A stretch of 64,000 nt of DNA from a virus (taxonomy: Duplodnaviria; Heunggongvirae; Uroviricota; Caudoviricetes): IMG/VR virus record IMGVR_UViG_3300028887_000069, positions 52,898-116,897 of that record. One strand, 5' to 3'. The position numbers were made by a program, and so were the translations under genes. A model generated the notes under the pieces. The model did no database searches and was not told where the DNA came from. It worked only from the letters and a program-made list of their open reading frames with translations. Position 1 is the first letter of the stretch. Each line of letters opens with the position of its first letter. Positions 8,880 to 52,925 of this stretch are shown here, in pieces.

Positions 8880-9683
8880 ATGAATAGTTGCATCAAATTT
8901 TTTGGTGGAAAGAACGGGATGTACAAGAACATTATACCCGAATTTCCTGAGAAGGGTAGTTATGACACATACATTGAGCCGTTCGGCGGCTCGTTCGCCA
9001 TTGGTCTGCATACCCCCGAGGACATGATTGCCCCGATTGAGATATATAACGACCTTGAAAAGAATGTGTACTCGCTGTTCAAGGTCTTGTCGGATGAAGC
9101 GAAGTTCAATGAATTCAAGAAACTCTGTGATTTGGTATATTATGACGAAGACTTAAGGTCTGAATATATCGACGATTTGAAAAATGACAAAGAGTTGGGC
9201 GAGGTTTCCAGAGCGTTCCGCTTTTTCTATATCAACCGAACAAGCCACAACGGTATTGGTGGGTTCAGTCTTCAAAGGGTTGTGAGGAGAAATATGTCCA
9301 AGAACGTAAGCGACTTCCTCAGTACGGTTGACGGGCTATATGAACTCCACCAACGCCTGAGCAAGGTCAATTTCATGAACAGGGACGGCATCGAACTCAT
9401 GAAAAGGTTCTCCGAACCCAACATTTTCATCTATGCAGACCCGCCATACGTGCATTCAACACGTGGGACGACGAGATATACAGTGGATATGGATGATGAC
9501 ACTCAAAAAAAGTTTTTGGAAGTCTGTATAAACAGTCATGCCAAGATACTTATAAGCGGTTACGACTGTGAGATGTACAACATTCTGACCGAAAACGGCT
9601 TTACCAAAAAGCACTTTGACAAACAGGTCATTGAAGGCAACAACTACAGTCTCAACAAAGAGACACTTTGGAAAAATTATTAG
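8880..9683 (+). CDS. dam: DNA N6-adenine methyltransferase, Dam-like
   Basis: N-terminal KFFGGK plus YIEPFGGSFAIG (motif I) and IYADPPY (motif IV). Start moved to the ATG at 8880 because the middle-type promoter box lies inside the longer track ORF. Confidence 0.7.
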   Translation: MNSCIKFFGGKNGMYKNIIPEFPEKGSYDTYIEPFGGSFAIGLHTPEDMIAPIEIYNDLEKNVYSLFKVLSDEAKFNEFKKLCDLVYYDEDLRSEYIDDLKNDKELGEVSRAFRFFYINRTSHNGIGGFSLQRVVRRNMSKNVSDFLSTVDGLYELHQRLSKVNFMNRDGIELMKRFSEPNIFIYADPPYVHSTRGTTRYTVDMDDDTQKKFLEVCINSHAKILISGYDCEMYNILTENGFTKKHFDKQVIEGNNYSLNKETLWKNY

Positions 9684-9702
9684 AAAAACACATAAATACA
9701 AA

Positions 9703-10077
9703 ATGGATGAACTACATTTAGATTCAGTTATCGAAGCCTCGGGCAAATACAAGGGAATGACAGTACAGGAAGTCATTGACAAGAAGAAAAGCGCTGTCTT
9801 CCAACTTATCAAGAAAGGATTGATATTTGACGACGAGGTATTGAAGGTGTGCAACATCACCAAGACAATAAGGGACAGGAAGGCAATAAACGTCATAGTT
9901 GACCATGACAAGCCCGCTGTAAAGAAACTTGCAAAGGACACCGCATCCCTGAAAGATATTCTCAAGGAGATAAACACCCTCGAATATTACGAGGACGAGA
10001 AAAACAAGGAAACAGACGAAAACAACGACCCAAATTACCCGACAGAAGATGGAATTATCGAACCCAACAACGAATAA
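9703..10077 (+). CDS. Hypothetical protein, 124 aa
   Basis: ORF; start taken at the first ATG (MDELHLDS) of the longer alternative-start track ORF. Confidence 0.4.
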   Translation: MDELHLDSVIEASGKYKGMTVQEVIDKKKSAVFQLIKKGLIFDDEVLKVCNITKTIRDRKAINVIVDHDKPAVKKLAKDTASLKDILKEINTLEYYEDEKNKETDENNDPNYPTEDGIIEPNNE

Positions 10078-11011
10078 GCGTATATTCGGCTTTGCAGGAA
10101 GAATGCGAAGCGGAAAGGGAAGTCTCTCAAACGCCGTGAAGGAGAATTTCGACGGTGAAATAATAACCGTTGCCGACGCATTGAAAAGGCTTGTCATAGA
10201 AATGATTCCCAATGTATGCTCCAACATCATGGAACTTAATGCTGTGAAAAACAGAGGTGATGTCTTGGACTGCGGCATAAGCGATAAGGATATAAAACTT
10301 ATTTCCGACAACACCTCCGTTCCATATGAGGATGTTGAGCGTGAATGCAAGGATAAGAAACAGTGGGTTGACGTCAGGGACATGCTGCAGTTCATAGGAA
10401 CCAACATAATACGCAAGTACAATCCTGATTGGCATGTGGAAAAACTCATATCCAATATACAGAACAGTTCCAAGGATACTGTATGTGTTGACGACGTGCG
10501 TTTCCCTAATGAAAGACAGGCAATCGAGAAATTTGGCGGTACGGTATTCTTTGTCATCAGACCCCAAAGCGAGATATTGACAAACCACCCTGCCGAAACA
10601 TCACTTGTGTGGCAGAATTTCCTCAACAAAAGGATTATCATCAACGACAGCAGTGAAAACGTTCTACAGGAAAATTTCGTACAGGCGGTGAAAGACGATT
10701 TCAGATGGCAGTCGGAAAACAGGATATTCCTTTCAGCCAATGAAAACTATTTCTCGGATAATGTGAGTTTCGGGTATGAGCATCGCAACGAAAACCTTCA
10801 TCTCATGTATGAGTTGATTAAGGAAAACAAAGACCAACCGCTTTTCCAAAAACACGGTATAATAACTTATGATGCCGATAATGCAACCGACGCAAACAGG
10901 TTTGTCATGCGTGTGCAGAAACACTCAAAGGAAATATACCATTGCGGTCACAGATTTGTCTTCTACAACCCGTTGATATTTGAAAATCTGAAAATACACT
11001 TAACTACTTGA
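10049..11011 (+). CDS. P-loop NTPase, phage dNMP-kinase-like, 320 aa
   Basis: N-terminal RIFGFAGRMRSGKGS P-loop resembles phage deoxynucleoside-monophosphate kinases. Confidence 0.4.
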   Translation: MELSNPTTNKRIFGFAGRMRSGKGSLSNAVKENFDGEIITVADALKRLVIEMIPNVCSNIMELNAVKNRGDVLDCGISDKDIKLISDNTSVPYEDVERECKDKKQWVDVRDMLQFIGTNIIRKYNPDWHVEKLISNIQNSSKDTVCVDDVRFPNERQAIEKFGGTVFFVIRPQSEILTNHPAETSLVWQNFLNKRIIINDSSENVLQENFVQAVKDDFRWQSENRIFLSANENYFSDNVSFGYEHRNENLHLMYELIKENKDQPLFQKHGIITYDADNATDANRFVMRVQKHSKEIYHCGHRFVFYNPLIFENLKIHLTT

Positions 11012-11384
11012 TATAGTTTACGGACAGCATTCCGTCACGACTTATCTTGTTGTCCAACCAATCGTCAACAACCTGCTTGATGAACTTTTTCCTGTCATCA
11101 TCATCCTTGATATTCGAGGCGAATTTGGAATCAAGTTTTGAAAGCAGTTTTTCCACACTTATGGTTTGAAGCGGTTGCCCTGAAACACTCAGCACCTGTA
11201 CCGCATTCTTCTCCACAACATCACCGTTCTCGTCTATGTCGTCATATTTAGCCTTGGCAAAATGTTTGTCAAGGTATCTCTTTATTGCCGACACCAAATG
11301 TATGTTTATGACAAATGCCTCGGTCAGTGCATTCTCATACGCTTCCCTTAACTGATTTTCCGTTATGTAGACAACCTTACTCAT
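11004..11384 (-). CDS. Hypothetical protein, 126 aa, with shared N-terminal motif MSKVVYITENQLREAYE
   Basis: ORF translationally coupled (ATGA overlap) to the upstream Clp ATPase gene. Confidence 0.45.
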   Translation of the reverse strand: MSKVVYITENQLREAYENALTEAFVINIHLVSAIKRYLDKHFAKAKYDDIDENGDVVEKNAVQVLSVSGQPLQTISVEKLLSKLDSKFASNIKDDDDRKKFIKQVVDDWLDNKISRDGMLSVNYIK

Positions 11385-13864
11385 TTATCACTGCTTTCAT
11401 TATAAATATCTGAATATTTGATTTTGTATCCTTTCTTAGGTGTATTCTCCAAAAGGTAGTCAGTCAACTTGTCCTCCAATTGGCGACGCAATTCCCTGAG
11501 TATCGGTCTTGCACCGTATTCAGACTCTTTCTTGACCTCCTTGAAGATATTCTTCGGAAGTTCGCCCTCAAAGATTGACTCATCAAAAGCATAGCCGAGT
11601 TTTTTTACACGTTCCTCGATTTTCCCTATCTCTATCTTTATGATGGTCTTGAGGTTATCGTCAGTCAGTTTGTTCATGAACATTATCTCGTCAATCCTGT
11701 TTATGAACTCGGGTGGAAGTTTTTTCTTGATTGTGGACAATATAATGTCCCTATCCCTTACATCCTCGTTTTTGTCGCCAAAACCAATCAAAGGTTTCTT
11801 GTTGGCGGCTTCCTTTGTCCCGATATTGGATGTCATCAATATGATAACGTTCCTGAAATCAACGGTGTTTCCCTTGTTGTCTGTCAGTCTTCCCTCGTCG
11901 AATACCTGAAGGAACGTATTGTATATCTCCTCATTGGCTTTCTCTATCTCGTCAAGCAGAAGCACACAGTGGTTGTTTTTCTTTATTGCCTCAGTCAACA
12001 GACCACCCTCATCATAACCGACGTAGCCCGCCGAACTTCCTATCAGTTTGTTCACACTGATTTTGTCAGCATACTCACTCATGTCAAGCCTGACCATGTT
12101 CTTCTCACTACCGAAAACCTCCTCGGCGACTTTCTTTGCCAAGAAAGTCTTTCCGCATCCGCTTGTTCCTGACATCAGGCATACCACAGGCTTGTCGGGA
12201 TTGCCTAATCCAACCCTCTGCCGTCTGACCGCCTTGCACAGAATCTCAACCGCCTCATCCTGTCCGATAACCTTTTCCTTAAGACGACTGTCAATGTTCT
12301 TAAGTTTCTCGAGTTCGGTCTTGCCAATCTCGCCCACAGGGATGTCTGTTTTCTTTGATACGCATTCGTACAGTGACTTGAGCGTTACAGGCAGAGGTTT
12401 CTTTTCACTCAACATCTTCTTCTCATAAAGGTTTATCTCGCTCTTCTTCTTGACCTCGTCGGCACAGAGTTCGTCGTACTTTTCATACGATTCCGAATCC
12501 GACTTTGTCTTGATTTCATCTATCTTGTTCTGTATCTCTATCAGTTCAGATACGAGTTTGTCAAGATTATCGTCGTTTTTGACCTTCATCAACTCAGTGG
12601 CCGCTGCAGTGTCAAGTATGTCACTTACGGTATAGATATCAGCATTGCCGAAGAAACGTTGCGACAGGTTTATTGCGGTGGTTATCACATCGTCGGAATA
12701 TGTCACAAAGTGGTATTTCTCATACTTGGCGGCAACCTTCTTTATGATGTCGAATTTGTCTTTCCCATCCTTGTCAGTCAAGACAATCTTCTCAAAACGC
12801 CTTACAAGGTTTTTGTTTGGCTCAATGTATTTCGAATAGTTGTCATGCGTTGTGGTACATATGAACATTATGTTCTTGTTGTTCAGTATGTCCTCCAACA
12901 TGACGTCAGTTGCAACCTCAGTGAATTTGCTGTTTGGCGAAAGGATTGAGTTTATGTCGTCAATGAAAAAAATGTACCTGCCGCTTTTGGCTGCGGTTTC
13001 GATGATGTTTTGGTACTTTGACTCGAAACCACCCCTGAAGCCCGTGCCCGATGTCAACGATATGAAATCCATCTTCATGAGTTTCTTGTCCTTGAAATAC
13101 TTGGGCACGTCACCGTCCACAATCATGTTGGCGATGTGCTGCACAGTACAGGTCTTTCCGCAACCCGACTCTCCCACCACTATCACGTTGTTCTTGTCTC
13201 TTTTCAATAGTGCGGTGAAAATTTTGTCAATGATTTCACCGTTTCCGATTGCCTTGTCCAACTTGCCGCTGATTGCCATCTTGTTCAAGTCAATCAGGTT
13301 TTTCTCAACATCGGTGTTTTCGGGGTATTTCCCACTTGCGGGTTGTGTCTTGGGTGTATTCTCGGTTTCCTTTTTCTGTTTGCTTTTGGGCTTGCGTTTC
13401 TCCTTCGTCTGTGTATCGGCAACGGTGTCGGCATTTTCAGCAATGGTGCTTTCCATCACACTTTCAATCTGTGAGGTTGTTATTCCGTATTTCTTGAAAA
13501 CCTTATACGAGTTCTCGTCAAGCAGTAACAGAATGTCCAGAAACAGGCAGGAATTTATCACGTCACCTTTCTCGTTGCATTTCTCAAGAACCTCGTCGTA
13601 TATCTTATCGTATTTCGGTTCTGCACCTGACATCGGGGTTGTGTTTGAGAGTTCGGTATAACAGTCGTTTTCCAGACTGTTCAGGCTTTCGGTGAAAAAA
13701 AGTTTCTCCAACGCCTTGTAAGCAAGACAGTCTTTATTGGAGAGAACTGAATATATGTAATAATATGAACTTATCTTCTCGGTGGGAAACTGCGACACAA
13801 GGTCTTTCTTTATATAGTTGAATACAACCTTTGCCTCGTTTGTGAACGTATATTTTTCTGCCAT
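11381..13864 (-). CDS. Clp-family double-AAA+ ATPase (ClpB/ClpC-like), 827 aa
   Basis: Clp_N-like N-domain; D1 Walker A GESGCGKT; coiled-coil linker; D2 VIGQDEAVEIL...GTSGCGKT. Confidence 0.75.
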   Translation of the reverse strand: MAEKYTFTNEAKVVFNYIKKDLVSQFPTEKISSYYYIYSVLSNKDCLAYKALEKLFFTESLNSLENDCYTELSNTTPMSGAEPKYDKIYDEVLEKCNEKGDVINSCLFLDILLLLDENSYKVFKKYGITTSQIESVMESTIAENADTVADTQTKEKRKPKSKQKKETENTPKTQPASGKYPENTDVEKNLIDLNKMAISGKLDKAIGNGEIIDKIFTALLKRDKNNVIVVGESGCGKTCTVQHIANMIVDGDVPKYFKDKKLMKMDFISLTSGTGFRGGFESKYQNIIETAAKSGRYIFFIDDINSILSPNSKFTEVATDVMLEDILNNKNIMFICTTTHDNYSKYIEPNKNLVRRFEKIVLTDKDGKDKFDIIKKVAAKYEKYHFVTYSDDVITTAINLSQRFFGNADIYTVSDILDTAAATELMKVKNDDNLDKLVSELIEIQNKIDEIKTKSDSESYEKYDELCADEVKKKSEINLYEKKMLSEKKPLPVTLKSLYECVSKKTDIPVGEIGKTELEKLKNIDSRLKEKVIGQDEAVEILCKAVRRQRVGLGNPDKPVVCLMSGTSGCGKTFLAKKVAEEVFGSEKNMVRLDMSEYADKISVNKLIGSSAGYVGYDEGGLLTEAIKKNNHCVLLLDEIEKANEEIYNTFLQVFDEGRLTDNKGNTVDFRNVIILMTSNIGTKEAANKKPLIGFGDKNEDVRDRDIILSTIKKKLPPEFINRIDEIMFMNKLTDDNLKTIIKIEIGKIEERVKKLGYAFDESIFEGELPKNIFKEVKKESEYGARPILRELRRQLEDKLTDYLLENTPKKGYKIKYSDIYNESSDK

Positions 13865-15133: not shown

Positions 15134-15586
15134 ATGGTTGATATATCGGAAGATAGAAACAAGTTGGAGAAATATATCCTGAGATTCACCGACGATGTTG
15201 TGAAATCCACAAGGTCGTCGTACTATCGGTTTCCTGGATATATAGTGCGTGTGTCCGACCATATAGGCACCAATTCCTCGGGATTCTTCTCAATAATCCC
15301 TGTAGGGAACGACAACTATATAATACACAAGCATACGAACGGCAGTTTGAAACTCTGTTCCTATAATGAAATTAAAGATTTTGTCAAGCATATAGGCGAG
15401 TTCTCGGAATTCATGATACCGCAGCCGCAACCGAATTGGGAATTGGCCAAGAACGAGGCGGTTGTACAGGACGGCAACGTCAACGCCGACTTGGTGTTTG
15501 GGATAAACAAGAAATACTTCAGCCCCGGACAGATTAACGCAATCGAACAGATAGTAAATCAAATCAAGCAAAAGAACAAACTATGA
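15134..15586 (+). CDS. Hypothetical protein, 150 aa
   Basis: ORF only. Confidence 0.4.
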   Translation: MVDISEDRNKLEKYILRFTDDVVKSTRSSYYRFPGYIVRVSDHIGTNSSGFFSIIPVGNDNYIIHKHTNGSLKLCSYNEIKDFVKHIGEFSEFMIPQPQPNWELAKNEAVVQDGNVNADLVFGINKKYFSPGQINAIEQIVNQIKQKNKL

Positions 15587-15879
15587 CGACAGGTACGGTA
15601 ATATATCTAAGCGGTGCATTGTTTTTCACTGCGGTTGCATATATAGTATTGGAATACATGAACAAGCATTCCGACATATCCTTCTTCGAATACACCGACA
15701 AGTCGGAAGGCATGGTCTATGCGGCGTTGTTTGGTGTACTATGGGAATTTTCCGTTCCAATTGTCATTGCCGCTTGCATAGTGTGGGTTATCTACTTCTT
15801 CCTGCAACCGATTGTTACAAAGTTGATAGATTTCATCTCCAACCTTTTCCGAAAACGGGATAGCGGCAGAAGTTTATAA
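15583..15879 (+). CDS. Small membrane protein, 98 aa
   Basis: ORF with two hydrophobic segments. Confidence 0.4.
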   Translation: MTTGTVIYLSGALFFTAVAYIVLEYMNKHSDISFFEYTDKSEGMVYAALFGVLWEFSVPIVIAACIVWVIYFFLQPIVTKLIDFISNLFRKRDSGRSL

Positions 15880-16071
15880 ACCTATTCAAAAGTAGTCAAA
15901 AGTGTCTAAAACTAACTCGTATAAATATATTGTAGTTTGACACTATTTATATAATGGAAACTGAAGCAGAGAGCAGTTCCAAAATAACAGTAAAGATATA
16001 TAGAGGTTTTATCCTTGTCGGTTCTCTCTGCAACTATAACCGCAAGTTTAATACCTCTTTTTTATTGGAAT

Positions 16072-17712
16072 ATGGTCATAGACAGCAAATACACGAAAAT
16101 TTTCAAATCAAACGGACTGACACGTCAAAAATATGACGAGTTGGTTGGGTTCGCTCTTATGCTGCGTGACCACAAGAACCTTGTTTCCGAATATGTCAAC
16201 TCCAATCTTGAACACTACCTTGAATACAGCAAACTTGACTTCTTGAAGGAAATGCGCGCAACATACAAGGATGCCATTCCAAGTTCGTTTGATGTTCAGT
16301 TATACACTCAAGTGTTCAACTGTTACCAGAACAAGTTTGAGGCAATCCGCAAGCACCTTGACTTTGAAGTCGTGAGATTTGTTGGTTTTGAGTTCTACAA
16401 GCGTGACACCAAAAAGAACAAGAAAGGCGACTTGAAAAAGGTTGTGACAGAAAAGTCAAAAACACCTCTAACAATATGTCTAACATACCTTGCAAGGTAC
16501 GGAAACGAGAACACGCTTGACTATATCGCCAAGCAGTTGGAGACCTGCGATGAAAAGAAACGTGAGTTTTACAACAACATACTGCGTTGTTGTGAGAAAT
16601 TCGGTTTTGAACGTCTGTTTGAACTCGCTTTGCGTAAACGTAACAGAATCATAAAACGGTATTCTGAATATCCGATTGAGTTCAAGTCCTTGTCATTCGG
16701 GGGAAGGTGCAGAAAAACAAGAATCATTGACTACAACAAGAAGTTCGGTTCAGTCATCAACTCCTTTGTCAGTCTGTCGGGAATCGGAAGAAAGTCGTTT
16801 GATATTCCCGTTAAGTTTAACAAGGATTGGCACGGCAGTATGAGAGACTACAGCAAAACAAATCCCGACTATGAGTATGTGCTTACGTTCAACGAAAAAT
16901 ACCATCAAGTGAACATCAACTTGTGCAAGGACGGAGAGAGGTATATACCAGAAGCGGGTGACAATGTTGTTGGTATTGACGTTAATTGCAAGCACAACTT
17001 GTTCAGTCTTTCAAACGAGACAACTTATGATTACAATCGACAACTTGTGAAGGATTTCTGCAAACTGTCGTTGGTGGTTGACGAACTGAAGAAGGACAAG
17101 AACTACACCATCGGCAAGCGCAAGCAGCAGAAACTTGACACCTTGAAGATGAAGATGCTGAAATCCGAGCAACAACTCATTTCAGGTATGTGCAAGGAAC
17201 TGATGATGGATGGTGTGAACCACATCGTTATGGAAGACCTTGACAACGGTTTTGGAAGGTGCTACGTCAAGGACAAGGACAACGAGGATATAAACTACAA
17301 CAGAAAGGTCAAGTTTCTTGGTTTAAGTTCATTAAAACAAGAGGTTGAACACATAGCAAGGAAGTACGGAATCGCATTGTCAACCGTACAAGCGAGTTAC
17401 ACAAGCAAAATGTGTCCGATTTGCGGTTGCATTGCCGATGAGAACAGACCAAATCAAGAAACATTCGAGTGTATTGAGTGTGGACACGAAGATAACGCCG
17501 ACGTGAATGCGGCGATTAATATAAGGAATAGAGTGGCTGTAACCGTGTTGCAGCAGAAACTCTTAAAACAACGCGATAACAAATCCTTTGAACCTAAACG
17601 TCTCAAGCGCGAGAAAGTGAAAGAGATATTGTTATCGTTCCGAAGAGACTTGCTGAAAAATGCAGGTAGTGAATGTAATAAAAGTATGATGAATACTTTT
17701 GATTATGTTTAA
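16072..17712 (+). CDS. TnpB/Cas12f-like RuvC nuclease with C-terminal zinc finger, 547 aa from the first ATG
   Basis: RuvC-I VVGIDVNCKHNLF; RuvC-II HIVMEDLDNG; zinc finger plus RuvC-III CPICGCIADENRPNQETFECIECGHEDNADVNAAINIRNR. The catalytic D/E/D appear intact. Confidence 0.7.
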   Translation: MVIDSKYTKIFKSNGLTRQKYDELVGFALMLRDHKNLVSEYVNSNLEHYLEYSKLDFLKEMRATYKDAIPSSFDVQLYTQVFNCYQNKFEAIRKHLDFEVVRFVGFEFYKRDTKKNKKGDLKKVVTEKSKTPLTICLTYLARYGNENTLDYIAKQLETCDEKKREFYNNILRCCEKFGFERLFELALRKRNRIIKRYSEYPIEFKSLSFGGRCRKTRIIDYNKKFGSVINSFVSLSGIGRKSFDIPVKFNKDWHGSMRDYSKTNPDYEYVLTFNEKYHQVNINLCKDGERYIPEAGDNVVGIDVNCKHNLFSLSNETTYDYNRQLVKDFCKLSLVVDELKKDKNYTIGKRKQQKLDTLKMKMLKSEQQLISGMCKELMMDGVNHIVMEDLDNGFGRCYVKDKDNEDINYNRKVKFLGLSSLKQEVEHIARKYGIALSTVQASYTSKMCPICGCIADENRPNQETFECIECGHEDNADVNAAINIRNRVAVTVLQQKLLKQRDNKSFEPKRLKREKVKEILLSFRRDLLKNAGSECNKSMMNTFDYV

Positions 17713-17804
17713 TTCTTCGGATTAACGTTTTTTAGGAAAATAAATTTGGCAGTAAGGGAAAAAGGCGTTAATTTTGCAAACGTTAAACTTAAAAAAGAAA
17801 AAGA

Positions 17805-18821
17805 ATGAAAGGTCCAATGTTTTTTAGCGACAAGGCACCCGTATTTAAAAACCGTGCCTTGGAGATTTGGTTGCGGGACATACAGAAATACAAGGTACTG
17901 TCCGTGCAAGAGGAAGAGGATGTGATACGCAGGTACAAGGAAGGGGACCGTTCTGCTTTGGACATACTAATCCAGAGCAACCAACGGTTTGTGTACAAAA
18001 TGGCGAAAACGTTTTCCAAGGATGCCGACACGATACTTGAATTGATATCGGAAGGCAACTTGGCGTTATTCGACGCAATTGACAGGTTCGACCTCACAAG
18101 AGGATACAAGTTCATGTCATACGCCGTATGGTTCATAAAGCGCAATATGCTTGAATATTTTTACCATAACGGTTTGGTAAACCATTACGTCTCCCGAGAC
18201 ATAATGTGCAGGGCAAACCGTATCAAACATAAATGGTTCCAGGAAAACGGGTATGACATACCGTTGGATATACTCAGGGATAAGGTTAACGAAGAACAGC
18301 CAATGCGGACTGTCCGTGACAAGATGTTCTTTGCCGACATAACCATCAAGTACGACGGTGACTACTGTGAGACCAACGAAGCCGAGGAATGCAGCCTGAT
18401 AAACACGGTTCGACCATCCATGAACAAATGCGAGGAGATTTTCGAGCGTGAGGATGAAATGAAGCGGGTCGAGTATTATCTTGACGCTGTCTGCAACAAT
18501 GACGCCGAGAAAAACATAATGATTGACAAATACGGACTGTTCGGGAACGAGCAGTTGGGTGAGGCAAGCCTATGTATGAAATATGGAATCGAAGCGTGGT
18601 ATATAGGTTATCTCAACCTTAAGATAATGAGGGCTATGAATCAGTTCGCCAAGACAGGAACCGTTCCAAAGAAACGCAAGACAAAGGTCGGTTCAAGGAT
18701 TGAAGAAAACCTTAAAGCCGGAAAGAAAGGTGTTTCCGTTTCCGCAAAAGCCCAAGTGAGTGTAAAGAAGAAAGAAAAAACCACTCCAAAACGTAAAACA
18801 AAATCGGCTTGTGGCTCTTAA
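17805..18821 (+). CDS. Sigma-70-family factor with a lysine-rich C-terminal tail
   Basis: Region 2 ALDILIQSNQRFVYKMAKTF...GNLALFDAIDRFDLTRGYKFMSYAVWFIKRNM; a region-4-like HTH; KKRKTK...KKKEKTTPKRKTKS tail. A TAatTTTG promoter lies upstream. Confidence 0.7.
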   Translation: MKGPMFFSDKAPVFKNRALEIWLRDIQKYKVLSVQEEEDVIRRYKEGDRSALDILIQSNQRFVYKMAKTFSKDADTILELISEGNLALFDAIDRFDLTRGYKFMSYAVWFIKRNMLEYFYHNGLVNHYVSRDIMCRANRIKHKWFQENGYDIPLDILRDKVNEEQPMRTVRDKMFFADITIKYDGDYCETNEAEECSLINTVRPSMNKCEEIFEREDEMKRVEYYLDAVCNNDAEKNIMIDKYGLFGNEQLGEASLCMKYGIEAWYIGYLNLKIMRAMNQFAKTGTVPKKRKTKVGSRIEENLKAGKKGVSVSAKAQVSVKKKEKTTPKRKTKSACGS

Positions 18822-18989: not shown

Positions 18990-20018
18990 ATGATTAAAAG
19001 CATAACATTTACAGGAGAAAGAGGGTACATCGGAGAACGATGGACTGAAAAAGACAAACCTGCCAAACCCAAGAAAACTGATTGTCGGTACAGGAAATAT
19101 TCGTTCGAAACCCACCGTGATGTGGTTGACGACGAGAAATTCAATGACGACATGGAACGGTATAAGGAAGAAATGAAGACATACCGAAAGGTTAAGAATC
19201 AATACAAAGTATCCTGTTCCGAAATCCTTGTCGGTCGCAAGTTCGAATTCGCATCAGACAAAATAAACCTTATCTTCGGTCCAAATGCCTCGGGCAAGAC
19301 CACAATCATCAAGGGAATTGCGGCACATGCTTTCTGCAAGGACGGCTTTTCCTCATTTGTCAGACCGATTGATTTCCGCATTGGGTTTGGCGAAAAACGG
19401 GCACCTGAGAAATATACCGCAGAATTACTAAACTTAATAGGCAACACCTCAAGCGTGGTGGAGTGGGACGGAAGCCCGATTTATTTCCATAATTTCGACA
19501 ATCGCCCGAACTATGGGTCCATCGGCGACTTGCAGGGTTCGATTATCGAGAATACGGCCGAAGAGCTAATGTATATTATGGATAAAAACCAACAGTCGGC
19601 AGGACAGACCATGTTCTATCAGTTCCACAAACTCGCGGGCATGATGTCAAGGAACGTGACCTACGACGATTTGCTGAACAAGCCATACGGGAAATACGGC
19701 AAATCGGATAAGGACAACCCGTGGCGCTTGGCATATGACGCACAGGAAGCATACTACAGGTCGTTCCCGATGGCATACAACCCAAACGGACAGAACACCT
19801 ACCTCTTCGATGAAATCGACAAGTCGATGGACATACTGAACATACATGCACTCTATGCAAGCATATTGCCAGGCATGATGAAAAAGTACAACAAACAAAT
19901 CATAATCATATCACACTCCCCGATAGTGCTAAGTGATGAAGTTTATAACTCCGACAAGTACAACTTCATCTCGATGGATGAGGAATACACAGAGAAATGT
20001 AGGAAAATTTTATCATAA
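18990..20018 (+). CDS. ABC-type (AAA_21-like) ATPase, 342 aa
   Basis: Walker A IFGPNASGKTT; signature-like QSAGQ; Walker B YLFDEID; H-loop IIIISHSP. Confidence 0.6.
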   Translation: MIKSITFTGERGYIGERWTEKDKPAKPKKTDCRYRKYSFETHRDVVDDEKFNDDMERYKEEMKTYRKVKNQYKVSCSEILVGRKFEFASDKINLIFGPNASGKTTIIKGIAAHAFCKDGFSSFVRPIDFRIGFGEKRAPEKYTAELLNLIGNTSSVVEWDGSPIYFHNFDNRPNYGSIGDLQGSIIENTAEELMYIMDKNQQSAGQTMFYQFHKLAGMMSRNVTYDDLLNKPYGKYGKSDKDNPWRLAYDAQEAYYRSFPMAYNPNGQNTYLFDEIDKSMDILNIHALYASILPGMMKKYNKQIIIISHSPIVLSDEVYNSDKYNFISMDEEYTEKCRKILS

Positions 20019-20025
20019 AAAACAT

Positions 20026-52736: not shown

Positions 52737-52925
52737 ATGGCAAAAACATTCACAGTTAGCGTTCTTTATGAAACGAGAGTAAATATCACCGTCACCGCAG
52801 AGGACAGAGACCAAGCAAGGGAACTCGCCTATGCCGAAATGGATGCAATGGACGATGCGGACGTGGCAAAGGAAATGTTTGACAACCGTGACCTTTTGGG
52901 AACGGACATTGAAGAAAACGACTAA
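52737..52925 (+). CDS. Small acidic protein, 62 aa
   Basis: EP+SD+ORF. Confidence 0.45.
   Translation: MAKTFTVSVLYETRVNITVTAEDRDQARELAYAEMDAMDDADVAKEMFDNRDLLGTDIEEND

Follow-up and report, generated by a model that had tools for sequence, protein, structure and literature searches.

The stretch of DNA considered here, which we call the window, comprises 64,000 nucleotides of a virus of the class Caudoviricetes (IMG/VR record IMGVR_UViG_3300028887_000069, positions 52,898 to 116,897), and its gene of interest is tnpB (16072-17712, plus strand; 546 amino acids plus stop), which is predicted to encode a TnpB/Cas12f-like RNA-guided nuclease. Directly downstream, on the same strand, lies a gene for a phage sigma-70-family factor (17805-18821), and 3 kb downstream of tnpB there is a gene for the effector CasLambda (20785-23130), followed by its CRISPR array (23181-23479). 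An earlier, sequence-only reading of this arrangement had offered three roles for the nuclease, namely a second, miniature effector sharing the CRISPR array, a domesticated TnpB with its own omega-RNA, or an RNA-guided DNA binder coupled to the adjacent sigma factor. Our analysis bears out the omega-RNA of the second role but not the domestication: tnpB is the cargo of a discrete mobile element, a TnpB-only insertion sequence of the IS607 family at 15858-17721 (plus strand), which is delimited both by a block of DNA homology with its relatives and by an empty site in a sibling phage.

The ends of this element, which the sequence-only reading had not been able to see, become exact once the relatives and the sibling phage are compared. 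DNA homology with loci L001-L004, L042, L043 and L045 spans 15857-17721, with unrelated flanks; the right end in every locus reads ...TATGTTTA(A/G)TTCTTCGGA and then gives way to unrelated sequence, and on the left the closest copies pass from unrelated sequence into GGGATA(A/G)C. In the window itself the junctions are ..ACGGGA|TAGC.. on the left and ..TTCGGA|TTAACG.. on the right. Because the triplet GGA stands at both of them (15858-15860 and 17719-17721), the crossover is ambiguous within 3 nt, and the inserted length of 1,861 bp runs from 15858/15861 to 17718/17721. The contexts that we compared come from 15 IMG/VR loci, with copies that are 67-92% identical at the amino acid level, and from seven loci in other assemblies, and they number 17 when orthologous insertions are counted once. 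Across these contexts, on huge-phage contigs, the element ends are identical and sharp wherever they are readable, and the sequences that flank them are unrelated. None of the window's neighbour genes around tnpB is conserved in the 15 IMG/VR loci, the nearest copies (85-92% amino acid identity) all lie in contexts other than the window's, and the neighbours in the seven extra loci include genes for a DNA polymerase III beta clamp, a T4-type portal and a methyltransferase. One contig of 192 kb holds two copies of the element (L003 and L004), and this, together with the 17 distinct contexts, shows the mobility expected of an IS607-type family. Certain sites do recur, since L042, L043, L047 and L048 represent an orthologous insertion at one common site in diverged phages, and the insertion site of L037 is that of L006. 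A scan of IMG/VR with the left-end pattern returned no loci beyond those already found.

The empty site lies on an 11.8-kb contig, L036, which carries an orthologue of the sigma factor (P0121, 94% identical) and the same gene order as the window: AAA+ (ClpB-like), KTSC-domain protein, small open reading frames (ORFs; 150-aa and 93-aa ones among them), sigma factor, AAA_21-like ATPase, NADAR-like protein and CasLambda. TnpB is absent from L036, where the 93-aa gene directly abuts the sigma gene. Identity between the two sequences is 94.6% from 17721 rightward, over 5.5 kb, and 84-92% on the other side, leftward of 15857. At the empty junction L036 reads ...CCGAAAGCGTCA|TTAACGTTTTTTAGG, and the occupied window reads ...CCGAAAACGGGA|TAGCGGCAG (TAGCGG...) ... 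TTCTTCGGA|TTAACGTTTTTTAGG; deletion of 15861-17721 in silico leaves a site equal in length to that of L036, in which the upstream ORF ends ...FRKRD* with its TAA placed as in L036 (...FRKRH*). Against this empty site, no target duplication is seen beyond the GGA common to both junctions. The upstream ORF is a phage gene in the flank outside the element (15583-15879, plus strand), and its 3' end has been rewritten by the insertion, such that its product now ends ...FRKRDSGRSL*, the left end of the element supplying the new terminus in place of the last codon of the 93-aa L036 version. No vacant GGGA-type allele was found, two metagenome scans for empty or occupied insertion-site alleles having given no matches, and L016, the closest IMG/VR relative of the phage, is too diverged to provide an exact empty site.

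The sigma gene does lie where the sequence-only reading had placed it, and its product matches Sigma70_r2 (3.9e-14) and the PHROG 351 sigma factor family, with NCBIfam RpoH/RpoS-type alignments over residues ~15-280. Ahead of it on the plus strand, at 17745-17776, are promoter-like motifs, TTTG at -33 (17745-17748) and TAATTTTG at -7 (17769-17776), which we read as such by the Bacteroidota promoter consensus. It is easy to see the appeal of a TnpB that binds DNA under RNA guidance and is coupled to this sigma factor for programmable transcription, in the manner of the dead-Cas12f/TnpB-sigmaE systems: the two genes share a strand, with the TnpB stop 92 nt upstream of the sigma start, the putative guide corresponds to the DNA that immediately precedes the sigma -33 element, and sigma-associated inactivated TnpB systems exist (PMC10691335). 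However, the promoter-like motifs sit in the right flank, outside the element, and the same region is found in the element-free L036 (TAACTTTG). Since L036 thus has the sigma gene with its promoter, as well as the CasLambda locus, all of these pre-date the insertion and are independent of it, so that the empty site by itself refutes the coupling. In addition, the adjacency that was proposed for a conservation check turns out to be unique to the window, with no adjacent sigma gene in any of the other 16 contexts; the RuvC triad is intact and invariant, whereas the TldR and dCas12f-sigmaE systems have an inactivated RuvC; and the sigma factor is RpoS/RpoH-like, whereas those systems show conserved linkage to a sigma factor of the extracytoplasmic function (ECF) type. 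On the strength of the empty site, the missing linkage, the live active site and the non-ECF sigma, we regard such a coupling as extremely improbable, and the sigma gene is a neighbour only, beside which the element landed by chance. The sequence-only reading had itself named recognisable transposon ends and an unlinked sigma gene as the observations that would count against it, and both are what the relatives present. A sigma factor also occurs in L009/L015, and was rejected as a case of conserved linkage, because it is a different protein of 241 aa and stands two genes away from the element; an IMG/VR search for relatives of the window's sigma factor found none close enough.

The nuclease itself was described correctly at the outset as a TnpB/Cas12f-like protein with RuvC residues and a CxxC..CxxC zinc finger, and its length can now be given as 546 aa. 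It matches Pfam PF07282 (Cas12f1-like TNB) at 8.6e-18, and its family profile detects Cas12f proteins at up to 100 bits; the NCBIfam model guided_TnpB (NF040570) gives 91.4 bits where its cutoff is 100, a score that we read as the mark of a divergent, longer subfamily. The RuvC triad comprises D303 (in GIDVN), E388 (VMEDL) and D477 (NADVNAA), and the zinc finger C448/C451/C467/C470, which together provide the RuvC-like domain with D-E-D triad and zinc-finger (TNB) insertion that is characteristic of TnpB. The three triad residues and the four cysteines are all invariant among 120 close homologues, and invariant or nearly so among 63 representatives that reach down to 25% identity. An AlphaFold2 model of the protein is confident (predicted local distance difference test score, 90.5), and from its conserved residues the nuclease looks active.

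TnpB proteins of this kind are plentiful, with 1,924 relatives at E<=1e-3 (counted as 90%-identity clusters), the top 120 of which are 75-100% identical and mostly 545-547 aa long; where longer versions, up to 582 aa, have been called, the start was probably set further upstream. An exhaustive search of representatives gave 5,256 matches, 144 of them at E<=1e-30. Many relatives reside on contigs of 190-370 kb, GenBank phage records contain no close relative (the best is <30% identical), and the GTDB species-representative genomes yielded a single match, L037. The latter (JBGVNW010000068.1) is a 360-kb contig that was binned into a 'Bacilli bacterium' metagenome-assembled genome, and is probably a mis-binned huge-phage genome. 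The family is well defined, abundant and almost confined to huge-phage contigs, and it seems to be carried by huge phages, not by bacterial chromosomes. It is not described in public annotation resources; the kind of object that it represents is already known.

That kind of object is an IS607 element, as one of the relatives makes clear. In L006 an ORF at 9374-9997 ends 3 nt before tnpB and scores 189.7 bits against the NCBIfam model NF033518 'IS607 family transposase' (cutoff, 110 bits), and the TnpA that it encodes possesses Resolvase and MerR-type helix-turn-helix (HTH) domains. The upstream serine-recombinase TnpA with an N-terminal MerR-like HTH that typifies IS607 is thus found for the element family and not for the window copy; truncated TnpA remnants, consisting of the HTH part only, persist in L005 and L037, and the other copies, the window's included, are TnpB-only. 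Insertion at GG, GG at the termini and an absence of target duplication are established features of IS607 (PMC6188088), and the window junctions likewise display a common GG core without duplication, with the GG of the pre-insertion target being presumed. The left junctions of independent insertions are mostly (T)GGGA, the rest being TGGA, TGGAA and AAGAA, and they agree with the G-rich target-adjacent motifs (TAMs) measured for other IS607 TnpBs, such as AGGAG and GAGGG (PMC11061315), so that a TGGGA-type TAM is probable for the window TnpB. No sequence similarity is detectable between the window TnpB and the TnpB of ISFba1, which may be explained by the polyphyletic association of TnpB clades with serine recombinases (PMC10691335).

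A further feature of the ends is a subterminal imperfect inverted repeat, whose left arm (15877-15898) is complementary at 19/22 positions to its partner (17690-17711) and is conserved in L001-L004, L042 and L045. It could tentatively be considered a TnpA binding site; comparable inverted repeats arise by chance in the region, and position at both ends of the element is this pair's sole support. Elsewhere in the family, L014 carries a frameshifted copy of the element (10001-11639), and further TnpB-like genes with 23-28% identity are found in L014 (15588-16343), L008 (1651-2184) and L025 (4901-5446), so that several of these genomes contain TnpB genes of more than one lineage.

The guide RNA is predicted to lie at the right end. 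Conservation exceeds coding need over the ~195 nt preceding this end, and the omega-RNA (reRNA) scaffold, which we place at 17530-17721 on the plus strand (192 nt), covers the final ~60 codons of tnpB and terminates with the right end of the element, TTCTTCGGA. Its RNAalifold consensus contains 60 pairs, of which 19 have compensatory changes; the share of paired alignment cells is 95.7%, compared with 39-49% if the partners are shifted by 1-3 columns, none of 500 shuffles (0/500) matches the observed values, and the window RNA alone folds likewise (minimum free energy -59.9 kcal/mol, z = -6.75). The C-terminal tail of TnpB shows weak protein conservation and low-confidence modelling, which fits with the omega-RNA as the main constraint on that stretch. 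A covariance model (R1) finds one copy only in the window (17527-17721, 195 bits), reaching into the right end of the element, so the covariance search that the sequence-only reading had advocated did deliver an RNA. Its notion of a domesticated TnpB with its own omega-RNA survives in the covarying 192-nt RNA but not in the domestication, since the gene is mobile. A structured 3' RNA that ends at the transposon's right end and is followed by a variable guide is, judged by sequence, the anatomy of a TnpB omega-RNA, and its expression is predicted. Rfam returned no omega-RNA, RAGATH-18 or ribozyme match over the whole window at gathering thresholds, nor did a permissive E-value scan of 15800-17850, and a tRNA scan of the window found none.

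The putative guide segment (17722-17741, plus strand) is the flank directly 3' of the right end, TTAACGTTTTTTAGGAAAAT; the sequence past TTCTTCGGA is unrelated in every locus. This 20-mer is unique within the window, and it is unchanged at the vacant site of L036, where it is preceded by CGTCA and not by a GGGA-type motif. Its length and expression are presumed from the TnpB literature. Upstream, tnpB is preceded by a structured 5' leader (15957-16063, plus strand), in which the loops of two hairpins (15957-15980 and 16002-16058) would pair mutually, 15966-15973 with 16024-16031, to form an 8-bp kissing-loop helix. In an alignment of 8 copies (A4) this loop-loop helix is 100% paired, with 6/8 pairs compensatory, and the leader alignment overall has 92.8% of its cells paired, compared with 42-53% when slid. 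A U6 run follows the hairpins and the tnpB ATG comes 8 nt further on. The leader is found in TnpB-only copies of the window's subgroup and has no Rfam match, and a scan for sigma-70-type promoters and terminators produced counts equal to the shuffled expectation.

In L006 we also observe a solo omega-RNA (21274-21465; 207 bits, on par with full copies), with an intact right end and an unchanged boundary, which is attached to a 75-aa TnpB remnant 10 kb downstream of the complete tnpA-tnpB element and could be a trans-acting extra guide.

Such an RNA brings up the thought that the element is not purely selfish, and serves its phage, by co-option, as a programmable weapon or a means of exclusion, perhaps directed against competing phages or host DNA via extra trans-acting omega-RNAs. 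The great abundance of the family in huge-phage contigs, uniformly full-length and with catalytic residues intact, would suit such a role, as would the near freedom of bacterial genomes from close relatives (the single match being the 360-kb contig that is probably phage), the structurally intact solo omega-RNA in one relative and the persistence of orthologous insertions in diverged phages (L042, L043, L047 and L048). On the other hand, the guide position is the adjacent flank at every locus examined, as expected of a selfish element, the window has no second omega-RNA, the insertion contexts are scattered rather than fixed, and the frameshift in the L014 copy is of the sort seen in decaying insertion sequences. 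On balance we think that co-option is quite unlikely.

The CasLambda neighbour deserves consideration in its own right. The sequence-only reading was correct in seeing a Cas12 gene of 781 aa and a CRISPR locus 3 kb downstream, and the protein is CasLambda (PDB 9izp, E 2e-145). Its array has two repeat variants, 2 copies of ACTGTGTTGAGATACACTTTTAGAGGTATTTACAAC and then 3 copies of ACTGTGTTGGAATACAATATGAGATGTATTTACAAC, with degenerate repeat-like copies further downstream at ~23557-23592 and ~23685-23718, the last of which resembles the ACTGTGTTGAGATACACTTTTAGAGGTATTTACAAC variant. Between the sigma and CasLambda genes, 18990-20772 encodes an AAA_21/SMC-like ATPase of 342 aa and a weak NADAR-domain protein, in an order that is conserved in L036, and these two genes and the CasLambda locus may belong to one module.

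Could TnpB be a second, miniature type V effector that makes use of this array with the help of a trans-activating CRISPR RNA (tracrRNA)? It is, after all, encoded 3 kb from CasLambda and an array with two repeat variants, and Cas12f proteins are its closest solved relatives by sequence. Nevertheless, the protein comes with what appears to be an omega-RNA of its own, whose guide position is at the end of the transposon, and the similarity or complementarity of either repeat variant to that RNA is indistinguishable from shuffles. CasLambda is found within 10 kb of the element in only one of the other contexts (L007; arrays themselves were not searched for), and the sibling CasLambda locus, that of L036, has no tnpB at all. 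None of the CRISPR array and, usually, cas1/cas2/cas4 and tracrRNA that accompany Cas12f is present in the conserved 1.86-kb unit, which carries tnpB alone. The array belongs to CasLambda, and its sharing with TnpB, which had been the first of the suggested roles, strikes us as scarcely credible.

The suggestion that TnpB and CasLambda are paralogues fared somewhat better, in that the likeness of their RuvC-I segments is real at the level of the motif; it is, by all indications from sequence comparison, a motif of the superfamily. BLASTP gives 26 bits between the two proteins, hhalign aligns residues 265-523 only, which is the RuvC half (99.2% probability), and the TnpB family profile scores CasLambda2 at 40 bits. 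Full-length homology to CasLambda is not found in the 546-aa protein, and close paralogy was rejected on these grounds. By structure, however, the best match of TnpB is CasLambda, which covers ~90-120 residues more than any TnpB/Cas12f. Because of this match, the genomes that the two share and a suspicion in the literature that phage type V effectors derive from TnpB independently of bacterial ones (PMC12141684), one might propose that this long (~546 aa) mobile TnpB lineage is the closest surviving transposon relative of CasLambda, as its sister or progenitor. We consider this unlikely; if true, it would mean that a CRISPR effector was born of a transposon nuclease inside phage genomes.

How does the element compare with known systems? 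It resembles the IS607 elements (Helicobacter pylori IS607, and ISFba1 with its TnpB, PDB 8iaz) in the TnpA with MerR-like HTH directly upstream in L006, in the lack of target duplication and the GG core at both termini and in the target, and in its putative G-rich TAM, its 3'-encoded guide RNA ending at the right end and its intact RuvC triad. It differs from them in that the window copy is without TnpA, in a TnpB that exceeds theirs by ~150 aa (546 vs ~390 aa) and has an additional helical insertion in the N-terminal half, in an omega-RNA that is not RAGATH-18 nor anything else in Rfam, and in carriers that are apparently huge phages and not bacterial chromosomes. With the IS200/IS605 TnpB of ISDra2 and TnpB-only IS1341-type elements it would have in common the logic of an RNA-guided homing nuclease, an omega-RNA over the 3' end of the ORF, a guide that is the flank past the right end, and many TnpB-only copies; in contrast to IS200/IS605, the transposase of the window's family is a serine recombinase and not a Y1 HUH enzyme, and similarity to ISDra2 TnpB is weak (E 2.5e-4 with a single sequence, 31 bits with the profile).

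The likeness to Cas12f (type V-F; AsCas12f, OsCas12f and Un1Cas12f), its closest solved relatives by sequence, extends to comparable size and the RuvC plus zinc-finger TNB organisation, but the window TnpB, which moves as transposon cargo with a single putative omega-RNA, is accompanied by no CRISPR array, adaptation genes or tracrRNA. CasLambda (Cas12l in PDB 8dc2; Cas12n in PMC12141684) comes from the same phage clade and has a similar RuvC-I motif, yet unlike TnpB it uses a CRISPR array, has no CxxC zinc finger and has its RuvC-I and RuvC-II separated by a large insertion; sequence homology between the two is restricted to the RuvC half. Finally, TldR and dCas12f/TnpB-sigmaE are also TnpB/Cas12f-derived, and some are phage-encoded and some sigma-linked, but they are nuclease-dead, immobile and conserved beside their partners, whereas the window TnpB is intact, mobile and unlinked.

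Taking all of this together, we are confident that 15858-17721 is a TnpB-only IS607-family element, apparently phage-borne, which would act as a homing nuclease guided by RNA, and that the sigma factor and CasLambda are bystanders. In the life history that we envisage, a serine-recombinase TnpA supplied in trans by a full copy would have moved the element, which would have inserted at a GG(A) core between the small phage gene and the sigma promoter. Transcription would run through the leader, whose structure is backed by covariation, into the tnpB mRNA, and the 3' 192 nt of this message plus ~16-20 nt of flank would be processed to the omega-RNA, for which structure and position are in place. 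TnpB, with its intact RuvC, would bind this RNA and cut flank-matching DNA beside a TGGGA-like TAM, the target being an unoccupied allele, either in a sister genome copy after excision or in a co-infecting relative phage; recombinational repair from the occupied copy would then restore or spread the element. These later events, from RNA transcription and processing through TAM-dependent cleavage of vacant alleles to recombinational homing, are modelled on IS605/IS607 TnpB systems.

Several points do weigh against this interpretation. The 64-kb window, which is part of a 364.7-kb contig, encodes no TnpA, exactly as the sequence-only reading had stated, so the mobility of the window copy itself is putative, and the guided_TnpB score falls narrowly under its cutoff (91 vs 100). 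The exact empty-site comparison is one only, that with L036, whose allele is GTCA where the window has GGGA, such that the pre-insertion sequence and the TAM are putative. The omega-RNA matches no Rfam family, RAGATH-18 included. The activity of TnpB and its RNA is predicted from sequence, and expression and cleavage are steps argued by analogy.

What the exact empty site does accomplish is to dispose of the tempting idea that an active TnpB forms a pair with a phage sigma factor. In its place stands an element with mapped ends, a 192-nt guide scaffold, a probable TGGGA-type TAM and a kissing-loop leader, which make it a candidate compact genome editor. The fold-level likeness of TnpB to the co-resident CasLambda merits phylogeny, and the TnpB family as a whole may offer an example from nature of how RNA-guided homing elements spread among large phages that co-infect a cell.

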